Shown in pieces: positions 2,486 through 60,333 of a stretch of 64,000 bases of DNA. The translations under genes were made by a program, and so were the position numbers. Position 1 is the stretch's first letter. The number at the start of each line of letters is the position of its first letter. The DNA is from a phage, in sequence record PZ452584.1, one strand, 5' to 3'. A model generated the notes under the pieces. That model did not search any database and was not told the origin of the DNA. It worked only from the letters and a program-made list of their open reading frames with translations.

Positions 2486-3810
2486 TTGATTTCCTCTAAA
2501 TCTTTAGTGTATTCTGTAACTACATCAGTAGTTTTCCAATATTCGTTTTCTTCTTTTTTGGCTTTAGCTTCTTCAGCAAGTTTCTTCGCTTCATCGGAAG
2601 TCATATGAAAAATATTCATTCCAACCAGTTTATCAACATAAGAAGAATACATATTGATTTTCGAAAGTTCTTCGGTCAGTTCTTTACGAGTTTTACCCTG
2701 TACAACAATTTCACCTGAAATTACTTTCTTAATGAAATGTGCCTTGGCAAAGGCTAAACGAAAAGCGGACTCAGTTTCTTTAATTTTGTTATCAATTCGT
2801 TTTTGGACATAAGTTTTACGAACTTCAACAAAGTCTTTAATTAAATCAACTACGTTATCGTAAACTTGTAGTTTTCCTTTCTCATTAATAACCGTAATAT
2901 TCTGAGAACGACGCTCAATCAACCCGAAGTCTTTCATAATTTTTGCATGACGTTCTTCTTCATTATCGCTCAAAGAATATTCTTTGCGGAATTTAACTTT
3001 GAATCCAAAACCATGCTCACCACAAGCATCATCCCATGTAATGAAGCCTTTATCTTCAAGTGGGTCTAAGATTTTACTCACATAAGTTTCACGATCATAC
3101 TTATACGGAATCTCAGTGATATTCATTTGAGTTCGTGAAGTAAACTTGTACGTTCCACGAATTTCATATTGCCCATCAATTTCAACGACTTCACCACGAA
3201 ATTCTGGGAATTCTACCTTCGGTTTAGTTACTTTCTTTCCTTGAAGAGCTTGTAATACAGCTTTCTTGACAGAAGAAACACTATGAGGAAGAATGTAAGT
3301 TGCATAACCAGTTGCAATACCGGAAACGCCATTAAGAAGAACAGTAGGAATAATAGGCAAATAGAAAGCAGGCGGAATGTGTTCTTTATCTTGATGTACC
3401 GGAGCATATTCAGTATCTTTATATACGTTATAGAAATTTTTACTTACACGAGCAAAAATATAACGACTTGCTGCTGCTTTTTGGACGGTACGAGAACCAA
3501 AGTTTCCTTGACCATCTAACAGAGGAAAGTTATTATTCCAAGTGTTAGCCATCAAAGCACCTGCGTCTTGCGCAGAGTTTTCACCATGATGATATCCAAG
3601 GTCCGCTACACCACCTGCAATAGAAGCGAGTTTGTGAAACTTATCTTTATTTCCTCGTGCCAAATCAAGAGCTCGAGCAATAACAAATCGTTGAACTGGC
3701 TTAAATCCGTCAATCATATTTGGGATAGCACGATTTTCAACCGTGTACATAGCATAAGCCAATGCTTCATTATCAATGATACTTTTTAAATCGCGATTAT
3801 TCAGTTGCAT
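2482..3810 (-). CDS. 52: DNA topoisomerase II medium subunit (GyrA-like)
   Basis: 442 aa, same length as T4 gp52; sequence recognised. Confidence 0.95.
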   Translation of the reverse strand: MQLNNRDLKSIIDNEALAYAMYTVENRAIPNMIDGFKPVQRFVIARALDLARGNKDKFHKLASIAGGVADLGYHHGENSAQDAGALMANTWNNNFPLLDGQGNFGSRTVQKAAASRYIFARVSKNFYNVYKDTEYAPVHQDKEHIPPAFYLPIIPTVLLNGVSGIATGYATYILPHSVSSVKKAVLQALQGKKVTKPKVEFPEFRGEVVEIDGQYEIRGTYKFTSRTQMNITEIPYKYDRETYVSKILDPLEDKGFITWDDACGEHGFGFKVKFRKEYSLSDNEEERHAKIMKDFGLIERRSQNITVINEKGKLQVYDNVVDLIKDFVEVRKTYVQKRIDNKIKETESAFRLAFAKAHFIKKVISGEIVVQGKTRKELTEELSKINMYSSYVDKLVGMNIFHMTSDEAKKLAEEAKAKKEENEYWKTTDVVTEYTKDLEEIK

Positions 3811-3814
3811 AAAT

Positions 3815-3955
3815 TTACCATACTAGTGAATGTAGTGCCATAATAACATCAGAAATGAAAAGCACGACTTGAATTAATCCGAACATTACTCCATAATATA
3901 GTGCTACCAATAAAGTAGCAAGGGATAATGAATAGCCCAAGATTTTCTTAATCAT
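3815..3955 (-). CDS. small membrane protein about 46 aa (T4 52.1 position)
   Basis: ATG-initiated hydrophobic micro-ORF ending just upstream of gene 52 start; read from text, approximate. Confidence 0.4.
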   Translation of the reverse strand: MIKKILGYSLSLATLLVALYYGVMFGLIQVVLFISDVIMALHSLVW

Positions 3956-4106
3956 TAGTAGATAACAACACAAATGTTAAATATGCACACATACCCTGGG
4001 CTAAAGCTTGTGAAAACACACTGCTAGCATCGATACAGATAGTTAAAACACATGCTACTATCCAACAAATAAATGAAATAACTCCTAATAATTTTGCGAT
4101 ATTCAT
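3948..4106 (-). CDS. Ac-like small membrane protein, 52 aa
   Basis: ORF track trimmed to internal ATG (M11) preceded by GAGGAG; paralog of the adjacent 51-aa ORF (shared ...SVF.QA.AQG... core). Confidence 0.5.
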   Translation of the reverse strand: MNIAKLLGVISFICWIVACVLTICIDASSVFSQALAQGMCAYLTFVLLSTND

Positions 4107-4116
4107 AATATTCTCC

Positions 4117-4272
4117 TCAACTATTTTTAGAACCAATGTACGCGAATAATGATAAAATCGCTAATACGCCCTGAGCTGATGCTTGCAAAAATACTGAAGT
4201 TTCTCCAGTTATTACTGTTCCGATGCATAAAAAGAACCAACAGAAAAAGGCTATACCGTGAACAAATTTCAT
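4117..4272 (-). CDS. ac: Ac-like small membrane protein, 51 aa (acridine-resistance protein position)
   Basis: ATG-initiated 51-aa hydrophobic ORF immediately downstream of stp, the T4 ac position and size; read from text, approximate. Confidence 0.4.
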   Translation of the reverse strand: MKFVHGIAFFCWFFLCIGTVITGETSVFLQASAQGVLAILSLFAYIGSKNS

Positions 4273-4279
4273 ATTTTCC

Positions 4280-4360
4280 TCACTGGCGTCCGAAGACGCC
4301 TTTGGTTTTAAGATTGTTACGATAGAACTGCATCACATGTTCGTTATGGAAATTACTCAT
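4280..4360 (-). CDS. stp: Stp peptide (26 aa), activator of host PrrC anticodon nuclease
   Basis: Translation [26 protein letters not shown] matches T4 Stp as I recall it; ATG overlaps ndd stop (TAATG); below ORF-track size cutoff. Confidence 0.8.
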
Positions 4361-4803
4361 TAATATGCCTGCAAAACAAATTTAAAGTTATCAGCCAACA
4401 TACGGTTCATTTCTTCAAGTGTTTGATACTCAGAATGATGATTACGAGTAAACGCTAAAGCTAACTGACCTTTTCCAAATCCTGTCGTCAGAGGTTTCAT
4501 CTTAGAAGCAGGCAGATAAAATACTGTGTATACCATATTGTTATTTGCAATAGTACGCGCAAGTTGAGACCGGCGTTGACGAATATGACTTAAAACCGCA
4601 CTAAATCCTTGCTTAGAACGCTGATTACCTACATAAAATCGTGCAGATACGCATGAACCATCGAATTCACTTACTAAAAAGTAAAATCCAGGTTTAGACA
4701 AAATGTCTTTATGCGGGGTTCCCAAAAACCATTCACCACCCTTAATTGTACCAATAACAGTTGCGCCTGCATTATTCAGATCAGTAACAGTCATATATTT
4801 CAT
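4360..4803 (-). CDS. ndd: Ndd, nucleoid disruption protein
   Basis: ORF track trimmed to internal ATG (M17, MKYMTVTDL...) with AGGAAA RBS; sequence recognised as T4 Ndd. Confidence 0.85.
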
Positions 4804-10307: not shown

Positions 10308-10337
10308 ATTATACCACATCCTTGTGGTAAAGTAAAC
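10308..10337 (-). promoter_or_regulatory. early promoter (GTTTAC -35, TATAAT -10) for rIIA.1/rIIA
   Basis: Minus strand GTTTAC-N17/18-TATAAT overlapping the 3' end of gene 39; approximate. Confidence 0.6.
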
Positions 10338-12157
10338 TACTGGCTCATCCATTCTTTACGAAGGTCAGCATTATCTCCCATGAGCATTTCAAAAAGCTCT
10401 TTCCAGTTCTCAGGAAGTTTAACAACATCATATACTGGGTTTTGAATCATCTCACGATATTCAGATTTTTCCAAAGAGCCAAGTCCTTTAATATAACGGA
10501 TGCTATGTTTAGGTAGAGCATCTTTGGCACTCTCATATTCAGCGACTGTATAAAACCATTCTTGTTTTTTACCGACCTGAGCGATGATTACAGGAGTTTT
10601 GACAAAGCGAATTCGTCCTTGCTCAAACAATTCTGGCCAATTACTAAAAAATCCGAGCAGAGAAGGATAAATGCTTCCTAAACCATCATGGTCAGCATCA
10701 GTCATAATAGCAATATTATGATAATTCAAGTTTTCAGCTTTTTCACCAAGAACTAATCCAGTGATTGCGCAAATATCAAACAATTCTTTGTTTTTAAGCA
10801 TATCGGCATATGACATACCCCAGCTATTAAGAACTTTACCGCGCAATGGATAACCACCATGAAGTTCTTTATCACGAACATCAATAAGATATCCGATAGC
10901 AGAATCACCCTCAGTCAAGAAAAGAGTAGTATCAGCATCTTTACCACAAAGATTCGCTTTAATATGTTTATGAACCTTAGCTTTAGAAGCCTTTTTAGCT
11001 GCTTTAGTTTCTGCTGCTTTTTCTGCCGCCAATTTACGAGCCAAGGCAGCTTCAATAATTGGCATTAAAATTGCTTCATTATTTAGAATAGCACGTGAAA
11101 TCTTTTTAGCATCAAGCTGAATATGACTACGAATTTCACCAAATGGAGAAGTAAGTCGTTCTTTAGTTTGAGAATCAAATCGCATGTTTTTCATATCACG
11201 AACAAACATAACGATAGTCAAACATTCTTTAACGCGTGCTTTAGTTACATCAATTTTGAACTTACGTTTGATTTGTGGAATAAGGTCTTCACAAATATCA
11301 TCCATAACACAATCAATGTGATGGCCACCATTCTTAGTATGAATGTTATTCACATAAGTTAATTGACGAAATCCATCAGGTGAACGACCAACCGCAATAG
11401 AACAATTTTCTTGTTCTTGAACGATAGCATGTTCATCATACTGCCGTGCATATTTCTTAAAATTACCCTGAACCTTTTTACCATTAAAGGTAAATTGAAT
11501 ATCAGGATAAACAACAGCAAGTGTCTGGAGACGATCTAGTGTAATGTCAAGATAAACTTGGGACAGCTCATTAGTTTCAAATGACATAAAATCAGGAATG
11601 AAAGTAACACGGGTTCCTTTCCATTTTCCAGGAATAGTTTCCCAGGATTTATTTTCCATGCCATTTGAACAACGAACTACAATATTATTTTGACCATCGC
11701 CAGTTTCACCGACAAACATCACAGAAAAAATGTTAGTTAAACTAGAACCAACACCATTCATACCACCGGTGACACGTTCTTTATCATCACCAAAGTTACC
11801 ACCCGCTTTTGGAATAGTCCAAGCAGCAACTGGACCAGGAATTTCTTCACCGGTAGGTGTTTTAACCATCGCTTGTGGAATACCACGACCGTTATCTTCA
11901 ACTGTTACTTGATTGTTTTTGATAGTAACATTAATTTTATTTGCGAATTTAAACTTAGTACGAATACCTTCATCTACTGAGTTATCGATAATTTCATCAA
12001 TAAGCTTAACAAGACCAGGTACATACTGAACACTTTCCCATTTACCAAACAGAAAGCGCTCATGCATTTCATTAGCTGAAGAGCCAATGTACATGCCACT
12101 ACGCTTTTTGATATGTTCAATATCGCTCAGAATTTTAATTTCATTCTTAATCATCAC
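10337..12157 (-). CDS. 39: DNA topoisomerase II large subunit, unsplit (GyrB-like ATPase plus Toprim)
   Basis: 606 aa single ORF covering what T4 encodes as gp39 plus gp60; T2/T6-type arrangement. Confidence 0.95.
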   Translation of the reverse strand: MMIKNEIKILSDIEHIKKRSGMYIGSSANEMHERFLFGKWESVQYVPGLVKLIDEIIDNSVDEGIRTKFKFANKINVTIKNNQVTVEDNGRGIPQAMVKTPTGEEIPGPVAAWTIPKAGGNFGDDKERVTGGMNGVGSSLTNIFSVMFVGETGDGQNNIVVRCSNGMENKSWETIPGKWKGTRVTFIPDFMSFETNELSQVYLDITLDRLQTLAVVYPDIQFTFNGKKVQGNFKKYARQYDEHAIVQEQENCSIAVGRSPDGFRQLTYVNNIHTKNGGHHIDCVMDDICEDLIPQIKRKFKIDVTKARVKECLTIVMFVRDMKNMRFDSQTKERLTSPFGEIRSHIQLDAKKISRAILNNEAILMPIIEAALARKLAAEKAAETKAAKKASKAKVHKHIKANLCGKDADTTLFLTEGDSAIGYLIDVRDKELHGGYPLRGKVLNSWGMSYADMLKNKELFDICAITGLVLGEKAENLNYHNIAIMTDADHDGLGSIYPSLLGFFSNWPELFEQGRIRFVKTPVIIAQVGKKQEWFYTVAEYESAKDALPKHSIRYIKGLGSLEKSEYREMIQNPVYDVVKLPENWKELFEMLMGDNADLRKEWMSQ

Positions 12158-15350: not shown

Positions 15351-16034
15351 TTATCGTTTAGTTGGAAGAGATAGAGGATCGCATTCTTCCTCTGATGGAG
15401 CGTCTTCAAGACCCATAGCATATCGCAAAGCATACTTCATCATCAGGATGTCTTTCGCACAGTCATGAATAGAATCATGTGCAACGAATCCATCTAAAGT
15501 TCCCTTTGGAAGAGGACACGTGGTCATATCACGAACAAGCAGAAGTGCTTCAATTCTGGTACGAATATCACGCTGATTCCAGAATTTACACGGTTCTAAC
15601 TTAAATGTGTCAAGCTCATTCTCAGAAACACCATTAAAACGTTGAATATCACGAATAAGATCGACTAAAATTGGAAAATCAAACGACATTCCACGGCACC
15701 AGCCTTGAGATTTCCAAGGATCGATATTATGTGCATTGATGTAATCATTAAATTTTGCAATACCATCGATAGTGCTTACATCTTCATCTGATGGTGCAAT
15801 ATTTTTTCTAGCTTCAGGTGATTGATTTTTCCACCATTCGATAGTGCTTTTAGTAAAAAGACGATGTCCTTTTTGGCTTTTTAAATCAAATTTGATTTTA
15901 ATGCCACGTGAAACTAATTCATCAAACGTTTCAACGACTTCTGGATTAGGGTCAAAAGCAATTACAGCCAAATCAATAACAGCTGCTTTTTCACCACTTC
16001 CCATTGTTTCAAAATCTATAATAAAATCAAACAT
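15351..16034 (-). CDS. dexA: DexA, exonuclease A (DnaQ-like 3'-5' exonuclease)
   Basis: 227 aa, same length and position as T4 DexA. Confidence 0.85.
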   Translation of the reverse strand: MFDFIIDFETMGSGEKAAVIDLAVIAFDPNPEVVETFDELVSRGIKIKFDLKSQKGHRLFTKSTIEWWKNQSPEARKNIAPSDEDVSTIDGIAKFNDYINAHNIDPWKSQGWCRGMSFDFPILVDLIRDIQRFNGVSENELDTFKLEPCKFWNQRDIRTRIEALLLVRDMTTCPLPKGTLDGFVAHDSIHDCAKDILMMKYALRYAMGLEDAPSEEECDPLSLPTKR

Positions 16035-16276
16035 TAAACTTTCCTCGCTAAATCGCGAATTTGGCCTACAGTATAGTCTTGAATATAAACTTTATTAATA
16101 GGTTCATCAATAAATTTTGCCATAGATTCAATATCTTTTTGCATCTCTTCAAGACTGTATATTATCTTTAAAGCTTTTTCGCGAATAGTAATATTTTCAG
16201 GACCAGAATTTTTCTCAATGACAGCTTTAACATTTGTCATAAGAGATTTAAACTGACACCAACTTAATTCAATCAT
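16034..16276 (-). CDS. hypothetical protein about 80 aa (dexA.1 position)
   Basis: ORF track; listed first codon is GTG, trimmed to internal ATG (M12). Confidence 0.5.
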   Translation of the reverse strand: MIELSWCQFKSLMTNVKAVIEKNSGPENITIREKALKIIYSLEEMQKDIESMAKFIDEPINKVYIQDYTVGQIRDLARKV

Positions 16277-16535: not shown

Positions 16536-17855
16536 TCATACATAAAATACATCATAACGACCACGTGTTACACCAACATAAAGAAGCTGCTGAGCTAGTT
16601 CAACATCTGCATAATGAATACAAGGCGTATAAATGAAAGCACGGTCTACAGACATGCCCTGCGCTTTATGGAATGTTGATGCAGGAAGTGCTTTCACTTT
16701 ACTAAACTGTGATTTAGCATCCCAAAAATCACTCCATGGAGCTTTTCCGCCTTTGTTCCAATTTTTATAAGTTTCTGCCGTTTTACCTAAAAATAAGTTA
16801 AACTTATACAGTTCTTCATCAGATGAAATTATTTTAATCTTTTCACGATAATATTCATCATCACCGTAAGTTTCTACTGTTAAATCCCAATGACGAATTA
16901 GATATTCCCCAGAAACACCACGAGCTTTAACAAAGGTTGATGTATACTTTGCTTCTATAATACGAACTAATTGTCCGTTATTAAAAATAATTTCTGACAC
17001 AGGCTTTCCATCAATTTTATATGTTTTAATTAATGGTTCCTGCATTACAATAATTTCACCGACAATAAAATCTTTATCAGTTTCAAAAATCTTTTTACGA
17101 ATAATGCTATTTAACTTGTCAACAGATTTATTCGTAAATGCCATTACGCGATTTTCAAACAAATCATCTAGAGATTTGACGATTGAAAAATAATTTACCA
17201 TAAAATCGCGTAAAGCGGTATCACCAGTAAATCCACGTACTCCATGCCCGTCAACAACTTTATCATAAATCCACTTACCGTTACGAACGTCAGTAGCTAC
17301 ATCAATAATAGGAGCATTACTGCGTTTAACTTCAGTGAGTTCACACTGATAAAAATCTTTATGTGTAAAGAATGGACTGATATAAGCAGTGTTTTCTCCT
17401 GGGTCAACAGGTCTGATTTGCTTATTATCCCCTATTCCAATTATAGTACACCAAGGTGGAATAGTTGAAAGCAGAATTTTAAATAGCTTTCTATCATACA
17501 TTGACACTTCGTCGCAGATTAATACCCTGCATTTAGCTAAATCTGGTACTTCTTTTTGTTCAAAAAGAACATTTTCTTCATATGTTACCGGGTTAATTTT
17601 AAGAATACTATGAATAGTACTCGCTTCTTTCCCTGATAGTTTTGAAAGAATCTTTTTAGCCGCATGTGTAGGAGCTGCTAAAATAATACCAGTTTCACCC
17701 GTAGATATTAAAGCTTCAATGATGAACTTAGTAAGAGTAGTCTTACCAGTACCAGCAGGTCCATTAATAGTTACATGATGTTTCTTTTCTTTAATAGCCT
17801 TCATAACAATGTTAAAGGCATTTTTCTGGCCTTCGGTCAAATCATCAAATGTCAT
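16536..17855 (-). CDS. dda: Dda DNA helicase (SF1)
   Basis: 439 aa, same length as T4 Dda; Walker A GPAGTGKT. Confidence 0.95.
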   Translation of the reverse strand: MTFDDLTEGQKNAFNIVMKAIKEKKHHVTINGPAGTGKTTLTKFIIEALISTGETGIILAAPTHAAKKILSKLSGKEASTIHSILKINPVTYEENVLFEQKEVPDLAKCRVLICDEVSMYDRKLFKILLSTIPPWCTIIGIGDNKQIRPVDPGENTAYISPFFTHKDFYQCELTEVKRSNAPIIDVATDVRNGKWIYDKVVDGHGVRGFTGDTALRDFMVNYFSIVKSLDDLFENRVMAFTNKSVDKLNSIIRKKIFETDKDFIVGEIIVMQEPLIKTYKIDGKPVSEIIFNNGQLVRIIEAKYTSTFVKARGVSGEYLIRHWDLTVETYGDDEYYREKIKIISSDEELYKFNLFLGKTAETYKNWNKGGKAPWSDFWDAKSQFSKVKALPASTFHKAQGMSVDRAFIYTPCIHYADVELAQQLLYVGVTRGRYDVFYV

Positions 17856-19036: not shown

Positions 19037-19639
19037 TTATAGATTAAATCCTTCAAAATCAAGAGTATAGATAGTGTATGTTGAATACTTTTTGTACTCA
19101 TATCTATCTGCAATTCTAAATACACTTCCAGCTGGTATCATTACTTCTTGTTCATCTGAAACTAATTCCATATTACGATAACGATGACTATCCGGAAACT
19201 TAAAGTTTGGATTGTATTCTTTACAGCGTAGAGCTTTTATAGCATACTCCTGGAAATTGAATACCATAGGAGCTTTGAATTCAAAAATAACTTGTGTGTT
19301 ATACTCTAAACCGGAAGCAAAATGTAGAGCTATATTTTTATCATATGAAGCTGATACGACTTTATCAAATGTAATAATATCAATTCCTTGATTTAACACT
19401 TGCTTAGTCTCGACTGGAACACCTCTCCAAAGAGGTTTATCGTTTGGGACCAAACGAGATTTGATTATTTCATTTAACCAAGAATGATCGTCTGGTTTAT
19501 TAGTAATACAATGAATTAAAAGTTCAATTTCAGATAAATTAAACCCTTCAGAAAGTAATTCTTCACGAATAGAAGCACGCACCGATGCATCCATTGATTT
19601 TATTTTAAAATCTTTTAGTTGTATTACTGAGTATTTCAT
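19037..19639 (-). CDS. modA: ModA ADP-ribosyltransferase
   Basis: 200 aa, same length and position as T4 ModA. Confidence 0.8.
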   Translation of the reverse strand: MKYSVIQLKDFKIKSMDASVRASIREELLSEGFNLSEIELLIHCITNKPDDHSWLNEIIKSRLVPNDKPLWRGVPVETKQVLNQGIDIITFDKVVSASYDKNIALHFASGLEYNTQVIFEFKAPMVFNFQEYAIKALRCKEYNPNFKFPDSHRYRNMELVSDEQEVMIPAGSVFRIADRYEYKKYSTYTIYTLDFEGFNL

Positions 19640-20259
19640 TCAACTACCTCAATATCATAAACTTTAAATGTTCCAAATGAATCGTGTAATTTTTCTTTTG
19701 AAATAGAAGTTATTCTATACTTTCCAATTGGAATCATCCATTCTTGTTCATGCACAATCATCATTAAGTTATCAGTACGCTCTGAATCTAGCCCATCAGT
19801 ATCTTCATACGTGTACTTAAACTCAGTATTAGGAGAAGAAAGTATAATATCGCTGATATGGTCAGAGTAATTAAAAGCTTTATCAGTTTTTAAACGAAGT
19901 ATTGTTTCAGTGAAATATTCAGCATAAGAAAAAGAACATGCTGTGTGCAAACTAGTAGTAAATGAATCTACCCTGTTCGTTGAAAACACTTCTCCAACTT
20001 GTAAATCTTTAATAAGTTCTTTTGTCGATTTTGATATACCACGATATAACTGATAAGGCGATTTAGTTAAATGCTTTTTAATGATTTTATTCAATTGCCG
20101 ATGAAGAGCTTCATTCTTTTTAGCTTCCATACATTGCCAAAGAATTGACTGCTCAAAGTCAGTAAATTTTTCACAGACTTTTTTATACATATCATATTGA
20201 AAATCAACGCTTTCAGCTTTTATAGATAACTGTTCAACATCTGCAGGATTAATAATCAT
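19636..20259 (-). CDS. modB: ModB ADP-ribosyltransferase
   Basis: 207 aa, same length and position as T4 ModB; overlaps modA start. Confidence 0.8.
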   Translation of the reverse strand: MIINPADVEQLSIKAESVDFQYDMYKKVCEKFTDFEQSILWQCMEAKKNEALHRQLNKIIKKHLTKSPYQLYRGISKSTKELIKDLQVGEVFSTNRVDSFTTSLHTACSFSYAEYFTETILRLKTDKAFNYSDHISDIILSSPNTEFKYTYEDTDGLDSERTDNLMMIVHEQEWMIPIGKYRITSISKEKLHDSFGTFKVYDIEVVE

Positions 20260-22454: not shown

Positions 22455-22700
22455 TTAACCACCAGTTACTTTCCACAAATCTTCGTTTGCAGCAATCCAT
22501 TCAGTACGCTGATTTTCTTCATATACAGTAGTATATGCTGCTTTTTCTGAAGGGAACGTCTGGTAATGAGCACCAGAAATTTTGTGAACGTCAGAATAAA
22601 GAGGGAAAGCTACTGAAATTTCCTTTCCTTCAATTTTCTTATTTCCATCTAATTTCTGCTCAAATGTTTTGATATTAACATAACCGCGAGTACTAGCCAT
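22455..22700 (-). CDS. soc: Soc, small outer capsid protein
   Basis: 81-aa ORF (T4 Soc is 80 aa after Met removal); sequence recognised; late promoter TATAAATA upstream, terminator downstream. Confidence 0.9.
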   Translation of the reverse strand: MASTRGYVNIKTFEQKLDGNKKIEGKEISVAFPLYSDVHKISGAHYQTFPSEKAAYTTVYEENQRTEWIAANEDLWKVTGG

Positions 22701-22730
22701 GTAATTCTCCTTTTATTTAAATTACATGAT

Positions 22731-22738
22731 TATTTATA
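22731..22738 (-). promoter_or_regulatory. late promoter TATAAATA upstream of soc
   Basis: Exact T4 late consensus TATAAATA on minus strand about 30 nt upstream of soc ATG; approximate. Confidence 0.7.
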
Positions 22739-22768
22739 ATAAATTCTCGCGGCTTTTAAGACGAGCTG

Positions 22769-23287
22769 TTAATAACCTCGGTCTTGACGAGCGAAATTTT
22801 CAGCATTTTTCAGATAATAAAGTTTAAAGATTTCTTCAGCTGTAAGACCAAGACCCTGGAACATATTCAGAACGAAATGAAGAATATCAATCATTTCAAA
22901 TTTAATTTCTAACTGGTCTTGCGGAGACAAATCAGTAATCAGAGTTTCACGACGTTCACCATGCTGCGACTTCCAAGGTTTCCATACAGCAGATGCATCT
23001 TTTTCGCCATTGCTCATACCACCAAGAGAAGTCAGAAGTTCGCGGAATTCATCATCAATATAATCTTTCTGATTACGCAGCCAATCAACAACTTCACCTG
23101 CAGTAGCCAAATCATCAGGATGACGGTTATATTCAGGTTTATCTTTAGCTAAACGAATCTGTAGAGATTTCTGCATATCAAGCATTACCTGCAGCGGGTC
23201 TTTTTCATCACCGAGAATATCCCAATATTCATTTTGAGCTTTATCAGCGCCTTCAATCAGTTGTGAACATTCATTAAAGTATGCCAT
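22769..23287 (-). CDS. 56: dCTPase/dUTPase gp56 (MazG-like NTP pyrophosphatase)
   Basis: ORF track trimmed to internal ATG (M32, MAYFNEC...), about 172 aa like T4 gp56; the listed N-terminal extension is non-coding read-through. Confidence 0.85.
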   Translation of the reverse strand: MAYFNECSQLIEGADKAQNEYWDILGDEKDPLQVMLDMQKSLQIRLAKDKPEYNRHPDDLATAGEVVDWLRNQKDYIDDEFRELLTSLGGMSNGEKDASAVWKPWKSQHGERRETLITDLSPQDQLEIKFEMIDILHFVLNMFQGLGLTAEEIFKLYYLKNAENFARQDRGY

Positions 23288-23321
23288 TATTTTTCCTTTC
23301 AATTCATGGGTTAGTAGATTA

Positions 23322-23345
23322 ATTATACAATAAATATATAAAGCA
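23322..23345 (-). promoter_or_regulatory. middle (MotA-dependent) promoter candidate for gene 56
   Basis: Minus strand TTGCTTTA (MotA box) 11 nt upstream of TATAAT; approximate. Confidence 0.5.
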
Positions 23346-23358
23346 ATAAGGAGGACAT

Positions 23359-23559
23359 ATGGTACAAAAATTAATGGCACTTGTTAATGCCATAAAAGGT
23401 AATAAAAAACGTATAGCTTTTACTATTTCTGCTATGATAGGAATTTTACTCTGGAATTTTGTTTTATCACCAATTGCTATTGCTCATGGTGTTAATATTC
23501 CAGTAATTACTCTTGATACATTCGTAGATTTAGCATTTGCTTTGGTTGGGTTAATTTAA
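23359..23559 (+). CDS. candidate small membrane protein 66 aa on the opposite strand
   Basis: Only plus-strand ORF not inside a minus-strand gene; ATG preceded by AAGGAGG at optimal spacing; two predicted TM helices; no homolog known to me. Confidence 0.3.
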   Translation: MVQKLMALVNAIKGNKKRIAFTISAMIGILLWNFVLSPIAIAHGVNIPVITLDTFVDLAFALVGLI

Positions 23560-25734: not shown

Positions 25735-25917
25735 TTATCCTCGGCAATCTACTTCACATACTTGCTTGTCATCAACGAAAGCTTTAACTAATGCTTTATT
25801 AACTTCAGCATATTGAGTAGTAGCCCATTGAACGTCATCTTTCATCATTGTGATTTCTTTAGTAAACATGCTTTCATTCTTAAACCACCCCATAAAAACT
25901 ACCTTTACCAATTCCAT
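25735..25917 (-). CDS. dmd: Dmd, antitoxin against host RnlA/LsoA RNases
   Basis: 60 aa, same length as T4 Dmd; sequence recognised; immediately downstream of gene 41. Confidence 0.85.
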   Translation of the reverse strand: MELVKVVFMGWFKNESMFTKEITMMKDDVQWATTQYAEVNKALVKAFVDDKQVCEVDCRG

Positions 25918-29008: not shown

Positions 29009-29851
29009 TTAATCAACTGCTATTGGATGAATAGCATTAAACTTATGAAATGCTTCTGATTTTTCTTTACGCGAAACACACATGCGAAGAACCTTTAATG
29101 GCTCGTCTTCTTCACCCAACGATTTTCGTTTTTCAATATTAGAAGTTTTCCAACGAGCTTGCTCTGGAAACTCTCTATTGATTTGCTCAAGCGCTCTATT
29201 ATGTTTAGAATTACTACGAATTGAACTACACCCACCAGGAGCTTGTGCTTTTCCAGATACAACCAGATATTTGAACAAGGCCAAATGCGGATAACCTTGA
29301 TTAATTAAATTGAGAAATGCATACATATCTTCGCACAAATCAATTTTTCCATACCCAATTTGTTCTGTCGTAAGTTTTCCAAGGTCATACCATGTATTCG
29401 TGAATCCATATGAATTTTCACGATAATTACCCCAAGATGAAGTAATTTTAAAAATTGGTAGGCGAGCATGACCGTGATAATACCCGCAATCCATGGCATC
29501 TTCGACGTATTGAATCAATTCATAGAACTGTTCATGAGTCAATTGATTGACTTTATCCACGCAACGACGGTCATCTCTTTTTCGCATTGAACTCATACGA
29601 ATAGTAGTATCATCGTCAATCATCCAGATTCGTTGGCCTGCATACATATCAGTAATTGCTTTACGAGTACCGGCAATTCCGTTTACATCATCAGGAATAG
29701 TTATAATTTTAGCTCTAGACCCATAGGCATCATAATAAGCTTTTTCTTCATGTTCACGCACTACAATATGGGGTTCATAATCAGTCGGAAACATATCAAG
29801 GGCAGAAACTGCCCCGACACGCTGATAACTTGGAATTACGAATTGAATCAT
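29009..29851 (-). CDS. putative glucosyltransferase, DxD (GT-A-like); candidate beta-glucosyl-HMC alpha-glucosyltransferase
   Basis: ORF track trimmed to internal ATG (M3), 280 aa; occupies the T4 beta-gt slot between uvsX and 42 but is not T4 beta-gt; WMIDDD motif. Confidence 0.55.
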   Translation of the reverse strand: MIQFVIPSYQRVGAVSALDMFPTDYEPHIVVREHEEKAYYDAYGSRAKIITIPDDVNGIAGTRKAITDMYAGQRIWMIDDDTTIRMSSMRKRDDRRCVDKVNQLTHEQFYELIQYVEDAMDCGYYHGHARLPIFKITSSWGNYRENSYGFTNTWYDLGKLTTEQIGYGKIDLCEDMYAFLNLINQGYPHLALFKYLVVSGKAQAPGGCSSIRSNSKHNRALEQINREFPEQARWKTSNIEKRKSLGEEDEPLKVLRMCVSRKEKSEAFHKFNAIHPIAVD

Positions 29852-30588
29852 TTCCACTCACCTTTATAGTCTTTTTTCACAATATGAGTTTCGCCAGTAT
29901 TCCACCAATGATCAACCAAGTAAAAATGACGAGAATATACATGAAGACTTCCAACATTCCATATAATAGAACCTGCTTTATACTGACGAGTTGAATCGCC
30001 GACATTCAAATCAGATACTAATTTATCTAATACGTATTTTTGCCATGCATAATCATTACGGAATCCGAAGACCACGTCATTTGAGCGCATGCTTACTACT
30101 GCATTGACTTTCTTATCACGAATCAGGTACTGTACTGTATTAGTACACATGAAATCTGACATACCATCTTTATTGTAGTCAAATTGCATGGATGGACGAG
30201 TATAAATCATGATACCACGTCGAGAATCAGGATTTTGACCAAGTTCAGCTAAACACATATCATACTGGGCATAGTTATCTTCTGACCAAATAGCCCAACC
30301 ATAATTCGAGTTAATTTCGCCTTTAGAAGATGCTACCTGCTGCCAAATCTTTGGTGTTTCGCCTGGAATATCTTTAACAAACAAGCTCTTAGATTTATAC
30401 CATTCAAGTTCACGCTGAATGTATTCATCATTAAGAGCGCCAAAAATAAACGGTTCATCTGCTACAAATGATGCGCCAATAATTTCAATAGTTTTAACAC
30501 CAGTTTTATCAACTACGAAATCTTTTTCTTTTAATGCAAGCCCCAAATGAAGACGGATTTCTTCAACTGTCATAGAGTCACTAATCAT
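29848..30588 (-). CDS. 42: dCMP hydroxymethylase gp42
   Basis: 246 aa, same length as T4 gp42; thymidylate-synthase-like fold. Confidence 0.95.
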   Translation of the reverse strand: MISDSMTVEEIRLHLGLALKEKDFVVDKTGVKTIEIIGASFVADEPFIFGALNDEYIQRELEWYKSKSLFVKDIPGETPKIWQQVASSKGEINSNYGWAIWSEDNYAQYDMCLAELGQNPDSRRGIMIYTRPSMQFDYNKDGMSDFMCTNTVQYLIRDKKVNAVVSMRSNDVVFGFRNDYAWQKYVLDKLVSDLNVGDSTRQYKAGSIIWNVGSLHVYSRHFYLVDHWWNTGETHIVKKDYKGEWK

Positions 30589-59847: not shown

Positions 59848-60333
59848 TTATTCCATTTCTATTATATGCATGTTCTTTTTGCTATCAAAATATATGTTTT
59901 TAACTGTTAACTCCGAATTAATTGGCAATAAAAACTCTCTTTCATAATCTACCATACAAAGGTTATCATAAAGCTTGTTAAGCTTATCATCGTCAGTTTG
60001 GCCAGATTCTTCAATTGCGATTAAATTTTCTAAAATGTCAATCATAGCAGTCGAATAGTCAAAAACGTTTGCATTTTTTAACACTACTAAAACATTAGTC
60101 ATATAGCGTTCTGCAGCAAACGTTTCAGCTATATGAGACTCACTGCTAAAGGAAGTTATTCTTTTAAATTTGATTCTCCTATTAACTTCAAACTTATAAG
60201 ATAGTACTTCCTCTATTGTAAGTCCTCTAAAAAGCACGTCTTTAATCTCAAGTTTGTCTTTAATGTAATCATTAACACGCTTATGATTAAAATCATTAAT
60301 TTTGTTGCCAAGGCATTTCATTAAAATATGCAT
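59848..60333 (-). CDS. hypothetical protein about 161 aa
   Basis: ORF track trimmed to internal ATG (M11); listed first codon TTG; own early promoter after a terminator hairpin. Confidence 0.55.
   Translation of the reverse strand: MHILMKCLGNKINDFNHKRVNDYIKDKLEIKDVLFRGLTIEEVLSYKFEVNRRIKFKRITSFSSESHIAETFAAERYMTNVLVVLKNANVFDYSTAMIDILENLIAIEESGQTDDDKLNKLYDNLCMVDYEREFLLPINSELTVKNIYFDSKKNMHIIEME

Follow-up and report, generated by a model that had tools for sequence, protein, structure and literature searches.

T4 Stp, a 26-residue peptide, was tested by Penner et al. in 1995, and that work is summarised together with studies of the Kaufmann laboratory in PMC3014915. The peptide lifts restriction by the type IC enzymes EcoprrI and EcoR124I but not by the type IA enzymes EcoKI and EcoBI, leaves modification untouched, and loses function through missense mutations located in its N-proximal 18 residues (PMC3014915). 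As an inhibitor of EcoprrI, Stp unmasks upon binding the latent anticodon nuclease PrrC, the physical 'release' of PrrC being part of the model (PMC3014915, PMC12707154). Activation of latent PrrC requires GTP hydrolysis, dTTP as a co-activator and DNA with unmodified EcoprrI sites, and the cut tRNA is repaired in T4 by Pnk and RNA ligase 1 (PMC3014915). The function of the T4-identical peptide is also covered in PMC12409349, and a recent review describes the mode of Stp inhibition as unknown, 'perhaps through physical interaction' (PMC12707154). For the phage, the primary benefit of Stp is anti-restriction; PrrC activation is the counter-measure of the host. In the T4 RefSeq record, stp occupies 165505..165585 between ndd and ac and has the product name 'activator of host PrrC lysyl-tRNA endonuclease'; the gene is classed as delayed early in T4 (PMC3014915).

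To this description we compared a locus within a 64,000-nucleotide stretch of phage DNA (record PZ452584.1; hereafter, the window). The gene lies on the minus strand at 4280..4360 and comprises 26 codons plus a stop (ATG at 4360, TGA 4282..4280), and reads ATG AGT AAT TTC CAT AAC GAA CAT GTG ATG CAG TTC TAT CGT AAC AAT CTT AAA ACC AAA GGC GTC TTC GGA CGC CAG TGA. An earlier note, made from the letters alone, had placed a 26-codon gene at precisely these coordinates, stop included, and had named its product as T4 Stp. The peptide is indeed identical to T4 Stp (NP_049878.1; translation of T4 165505..165585) at 26 of 26 residues, leaving no trace of the mismatch that the note had named as speaking against the assignment, and a tblastn search of the window with T4 Stp returned the locus with an E value of 6e-16. 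In an alignment of the window with T4 and RB55, the DNA differed from T4 at two positions, both synonymous (His8 CAC>CAT, Thr19 ACT>ACC). The peptide matched the Pfam profile PF08133 (anticodon nuclease activator; 75.3 bits, with the cutoff at 25; E 2e-21) over residues 1-26 of the 26-position profile, as well as phrog_6763 ('activator of host PrrC lysyl-tRNA endonuclease'; E 4e-21).

Since the same 3 kb contain 45 open reading frames of at least 20 amino acids, a short frame is by itself no evidence; the encoded content is. That content is far beyond chance, given the identity with T4, the PF08133 match and a degenerate core pattern that matches just once in all 64 kb, a further copy of stp being absent. 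We consider the feature to be stp of a T4-like (Tequatrovirus) phage, an ordinary and previously known gene in its canonical position, with a probability of roughly 95%. Its absence from the first reading-frame track, correctly reported in the earlier note, stems from the 60-aa cutoff of that track, below which the gene falls; the frame is listed once the limit is lowered to 20 aa. The epithet 'unlisted' therefore describes an artefact and no discovery, stp being annotated in the T4 RefSeq.

The surroundings of the gene are those of a T4-like genome. BLAST showed the window to be collinear with T4 at ~95-97% identity, from T4 position 161398 to the end of that record and on from its position 1; T4 and RB55 both have its gene order and its ndd-stp-ac junction. 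The closest public match to 1.1 kb around stp came from Shigella phage Sf22 (98.0%), which makes the window a Tequatrovirus that is identical to no record at the stp locus. A partial arn stands at the window start. Directly upstream of stp and in the same direction lies ndd (nucleoid disruption protein; 4360..4803, minus strand; PF06591, E 4e-87; 92.7% identity to T4 Ndd), with T4 Ndd mapping to 4363-4803 at the same identity. The genes modA (19040-19639), modB (19639-20259) and dmd (25738-25917) share 97-98% protein identity with their T4 counterparts, so that the context of dmd, modA/modB and ndd drawn in the earlier note is present throughout, at 93-98% protein identity.

On its other side, stp is followed by two Ac-like genes, as likewise anticipated. 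Directly downstream is an extra Ac-like paralogue of 51 aa (4117..4272, minus strand; phrog_2501, E 5e-26; 42% identity to T4 Ac), and beyond it the orthologue of the acridine resistance gene ac (3948..4106, minus strand; phrog_2501; 96% protein identity to T4 Ac). Window positions 4120-4267 do not align to T4, and the paralogue is thus an insertion relative to that phage. Other Tequatrovirus records also list 'acridine resistance (x2)'.

Further departures from T4 were noted elsewhere in the window. A single 606-aa frame at 10337-12157 (minus strand) stands where T4 has gene 39, mobA, 60.1 and gene 60, so that this phage has an unsplit topoisomerase II large subunit and is without the translational-bypass element of gene 60; T4 positions 2807-3910 are replaced by ~50 bases in the window. 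In place of T4 b-gt and segA stands a 282-aa TAGT-family glycosyltransferase (29009-29857, minus strand; PF20691, 39 bits). Noted along with it was window 22700-23400: a tblastn search with T4 Dam returned nothing, the T4 DNA of segF (15611-16269) and dam (16826-17724) aligned nowhere in the window, and DNA identity to T4 in the gene 56 region is only 76.6%. Besides modA and modB, a third match to ModB-like ADP-ribosyltransferases was seen at 59920-60327 (minus strand; 28% identity to T4 ModB), presumably alt.

The start of stp overlaps the end of ndd in a TAATG junction (4358..4362, minus strand), as the earlier note had read it: base 4360 is at once the last of the ndd TAA (4362..4360) and the first of the stp ATG (4360..4358). 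Both the minus-strand read (...GCA TAT TAA TG AGT...) and the reading-frame ends, with ndd closing at 4360 including its stop, bear this out, and the junction is the same in T4, RB55 and other T4-like contigs. The Shine-Dalgarno sequence of stp is weak, consisting of an AGG 7 nt upstream of the ATG. Taken with the overlap, this lone AGG suggests that stp translation is coupled to that of ndd by termination and reinitiation. As to transcription, we looked for a promoter that serves stp alone and rejected the idea: sigma-70-like matches near the gene were at background (14 found, 10.6 expected from background frequency), and no MotA box matched on the minus (coding) strand between stp and 8009. 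A T4-early-like TTTACA-17-TACTAT pattern matches at 5569-5541 and 6057-6029, in the group of small genes that lies upstream of ndd. Having found no promoter specific to stp, we treat the gene as putatively co-transcribed with ndd and these small genes.

Relatives of the peptide exist beyond the T-even phages. A tblastn search with Stp also matched siphoviruses of ~41-51 kb, and the three that we inspected had intact ATG frames, none of which was annotated as a gene in its GenBank record. Intact Stp-family frames of this kind encode 25-27 aa and belong to Kagunavirus and Drexlerviridae (loci L005, 2501-2578; L006, 1975-2052; L007, 2501-2581; and L016-L064); examples are the 25-residue peptide of Kagunavirus phage G AB-2017, the peptide MSSHHNEHVMQLYRHNLKSLGRLGK of Nouzillyvirus XT34 and the 26-residue peptide of Henuseptimavirus AS5. 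IMG/VR supplied dozens more siphoviral loci, mostly with AAGGAG ribosome-binding sites. All six siphoviral variants tested passed the PF08133 cutoff, at 34-67 bits; with both Pfam and PHROG profiles recognising the siphoviral sequences, this is an annotation gap and no new family. Across 12 representative variants, M1, S2, N6, E7, H8, M10, R14 and K18 are invariant and H5 and Q11 nearly so, and the conserved core coincides with the 18 N-terminal residues to which T4 genetics points. We found no PDB entry with the Stp sequence. An amphipathic-helix signature was discarded (maximal helical hydrophobic moment 0.54, residues 8-18), 26% of shuffles matching the core; that the conserved E7, Q11, R14 and K18 would share one face if Stp were helical is suggestive only.

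Among one genome each for 185,579 bacterial and archaeal species, no Stp relative was confirmed, and the plasmids yielded a single match, on a 44 kb 'plasmid' whose size and type of peptide lead us to regard it as a phage. With no confirmed copy in a bacterial genome or on a conjugative plasmid, the family looks confined to virulent phages. Among enterobacterial phages of this lifestyle, its intact frames of 25-27 aa occur in Straboviridae, Kagunavirus and Drexlerviridae, three groups without relation to one another. There is about an even chance, in our estimate, that stp of the window is one member of a much wider family of micro-genes that annotation pipelines systematically miss. In the paper library searched, no text on Stp and Drexlerviridae or on homologues of Stp described such a distribution, although the breadth of the family may be known informally. 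This breadth and the under-annotation of the family beyond T-even phages are the sole material here that is modestly new.

Two observations made along the way concern individual loci. Two T-even-like contigs of ~170.5 kb (L021 and L022) carry two Stp-like stretches ~295 bp apart, at positions 2703 and 2998; the first is a divergent intact 26-aa frame, and the second, where the ATG that one would expect is missing, may be a pseudogene or else extended at its N terminus. In one Drexlerviridae subgroup, a 178-aa 'polynucleotide kinase' is encoded 0.5-2.4 kb downstream of the Stp-like frame (L007, 3310-3846, and 14 other loci). This protein matches the phosphatase domain only (Pfam HAD_PNKP), and within the 5 kb examined beside the Drexlerviridae Stp-like frames there was neither a full Pnk nor an RNA ligase. 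A link of the HAD_PNKP protein to the repair of anticodon-nuclease damage is possible.

At its 3' end, stp of the window is predicted to fold into a GGCGUC-UUCG-GACGCC tetraloop hairpin (4285..4300, minus strand; codons 20-26; -10 kcal/mol for the hairpin alone), immediately followed on its 3' side by GAGG, the Shine-Dalgarno sequence of the next gene (4281..4278, minus strand). The hairpin and the GAGGAAAATATG that follows it are the same in the window, T4 and RB55. All Straboviridae copies that we examined retain the hairpin, a G-U variant and a variant with a UUUG loop among them. Tuerk et al. (1988) are said to have described C(UUCG)G hairpins as a feature of T4. Siphoviral copies are without the hairpin, including those that still encode GVFG, which marks it as a T-even-specific overlay on the coding sequence. 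We accordingly dismissed the hairpin as the cause of the C-terminal GVFG conservation, Kagunavirus keeping GVFG with other codons and no hairpin. Nor did the ndd-stp-ac junction qualify as globally structured RNA: its stability equals that of shuffles (z = -0.11), and the local UUCG hairpin alone stands out. On the plus strand, the stem followed by TTTGGTTTTA scores as intrinsic-terminator-like; we give this score little weight because the T-run is the complement of Lys-Thr-Lys codons and is lost in more divergent T-evens.

We then considered how the peptide and its codons vary. The Stp peptide matched 799 phage records by tblastn, at least 423 of them at 100% identity, while the DNA surrounding stp is only 90-95% identical in most T4-like records. 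In a scan of IMG/VR that returned 57 loci, every locus with a complete 5' end had an intact frame of 25-27 codons. Substitutions were counted after Nei and Gojobori over 24 codons, with the window copy as the reference. Eight distinct T4-like DNA variants with the T4-type peptide (seven from IMG/VR, plus T4) differed from the window by synonymous changes only, and a further T4-like variant (L012) had three synonymous changes and one non-synonymous change (Leu17 to Phe). Kagunavirus copies showed 9-12 synonymous and 0-1 non-synonymous differences from the window (pS 0.74-0.99, pN 0-0.02), and copies from unrelated siphoviruses kept 24 or 25 of 25 residues with synonymous sites near saturation. 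These counts show strong purifying selection on the Stp peptide.

Such selection excludes a frame that is incidental to an RNA element, and it bears directly on the first of three other readings of the locus. According to that reading, the frame would be an untranslated by-product, with the RNA conserved in its place, be it as the UUCG hairpin with the downstream Shine-Dalgarno sequence or as the ndd 3' end. A stable hairpin over codons 20-26 in all Straboviridae copies, and an ATG preceded by nothing stronger than AGG, would be expected of such an element. Yet the differences from T4 and from other phages sit at synonymous sites, Kagunavirus and Drexlerviridae keep the peptide with no hairpin, behind a different upstream gene and strong AAGGAG sites, and missense mutants of T4 stp have a phenotype (PMC3014915), all of which renders an RNA by-product very improbable. 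Still further from the evidence is a decayed or non-functional copy, to which we assign the lowest likelihood of all: nothing in the window favours it, the nearest precedent being the tandem ATG-less stretch in the two ~170.5 kb T-even-like contigs, whereas the gene has its ATG, a full-length frame and a stop, is present once in the window and encodes a peptide 100% identical to the functional one of T4, an identity that already refutes this reading.

More room is left for a peptide that is made but whose main selected role is other than, or additional to, the block of type IC enzymes, for instance an action on another host complex; this idea is compatible with our preferred explanation, and we consider it unlikely. 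T-even DNA is hydroxymethylated and glucosylated and hence already poorly restricted by type I enzymes, the peptide is near-invariant over its full length, including residues 19-25 outside the mutationally defined region, and the mechanism of inhibition is unknown in the literature (PMC12707154). On the other hand, type IC inhibition and PrrC activation are the sole demonstrated activities (PMC3014915), and siphoviruses have family members too, for which anti-restriction would be the obvious benefit if, as we assume, their DNA is unmodified.

We return to a translated stp with the function of its T4 counterpart, a reading that nothing in the sequence contradicts. Every biochemical step that follows draws on the 100% identity of the window peptide to the tested T4 peptide, which extends across the N-proximal 18 residues where the loss-of-function mutations map. 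A leftward early operon would carry stp, ndd and the small genes that precede ndd, and translation would probably be by termination and reinitiation at TAATG, aided by the weak AGG. The 26-residue product is expected to bind the type IC restriction-modification complex of the host (EcoprrI, EcoR124I), blocking restriction and sparing modification. In type IC hosts that carry prrC, binding would unmask the latent PrrC anticodon nuclease. The predicted PrrC cut in tRNA-Lys lies 5' to the wobble base, and polynucleotide kinase and RNA ligase 1, both encoded outside the window, would be the phage's answer to it. The earlier note's statement that Stp 'releases' PrrC from EcoprrI is accordingly right as to the link with PrrC; physical release is a model, and an undemonstrated step (PMC3014915, PMC12707154). 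If the proposed sequence of events applies, the presence of Stp predicts a requirement for pnk and RNA ligase 1 for growth on prr+ hosts.

Within the window, stp matters solely as a correct annotation, namely of a type IC anti-restriction peptide and PrrC trigger. Its wider relevance lies in how rarely it is recorded. We took an evenly spaced sample of 28 public phage records encoding the 100%-identical peptide, and only about 2 of the 28 named the gene explicitly, as stp or as 'type IC restriction inhibitor'; in most, ndd alone was given under the match. Common gene callers apply a minimum of 90 nt, and stp, at 81 nt, falls below it. Stp thereby illustrates how functional phage genes under the length limits of gene callers go unannotated, and, rarely annotated as it is, anti-defence screens that rely on deposited annotation will miss the family. 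Should the siphoviral copies inhibit type IC enzymes, Stp would be a general anti-restriction device of coliphages with the 18-residue N-terminal core as its interaction surface, and not only T-evens but also T1-like and Kagunavirus phages should set off PrrC-type guards.

Compared with T4 Stp (PF08133 Nuclease_act; PHROG 6763), the gene in the window shares the 26-residue peptide, the position between ndd and ac, the TAATG overlap, the UUCG hairpin and the GAGG; it differs in its two synonymous changes and in the extra Ac-like gene downstream, which T4 does not have. The Kagunavirus and Drexlerviridae frames (for example KY295895, OR767160 and OR753409) have in common with it an ATG frame of 25-27 aa and the core MS[NS]xHNEH[VI]MQx[YH]Rxx[LI]K. 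Unlike it, they are without the hairpin, have strong AAGGAG sites and other neighbours, with no ndd among them, and are mostly unannotated, with a function that is putative; in Drexlerviridae, the C-terminal 7-9 residues are unrelated as well.

Beyond the family, the logic of Stp is shared with T7 Ocr/PARIS and with Ronin and the anti-restriction proteins that it senses, where a phage inhibitor of type I restriction triggers a back-up abortive-infection effector. Reviews treat Stp/PrrC, Ocr/PARIS and Ronin alike as systems that guard restriction, and the PARIS effector is also a tRNA-Lys nuclease (PMC12409349; bioRxiv 10.1101/2023.04.06.535777). The parts themselves differ. Ocr is a larger, DNA-mimicking protein with no sequence relation to Stp, whereas Stp has 26 residues and acts specifically on type IC enzymes; and PrrC, in contrast to PARIS and Ronin, is physically embedded in the restriction-modification complex that it guards.
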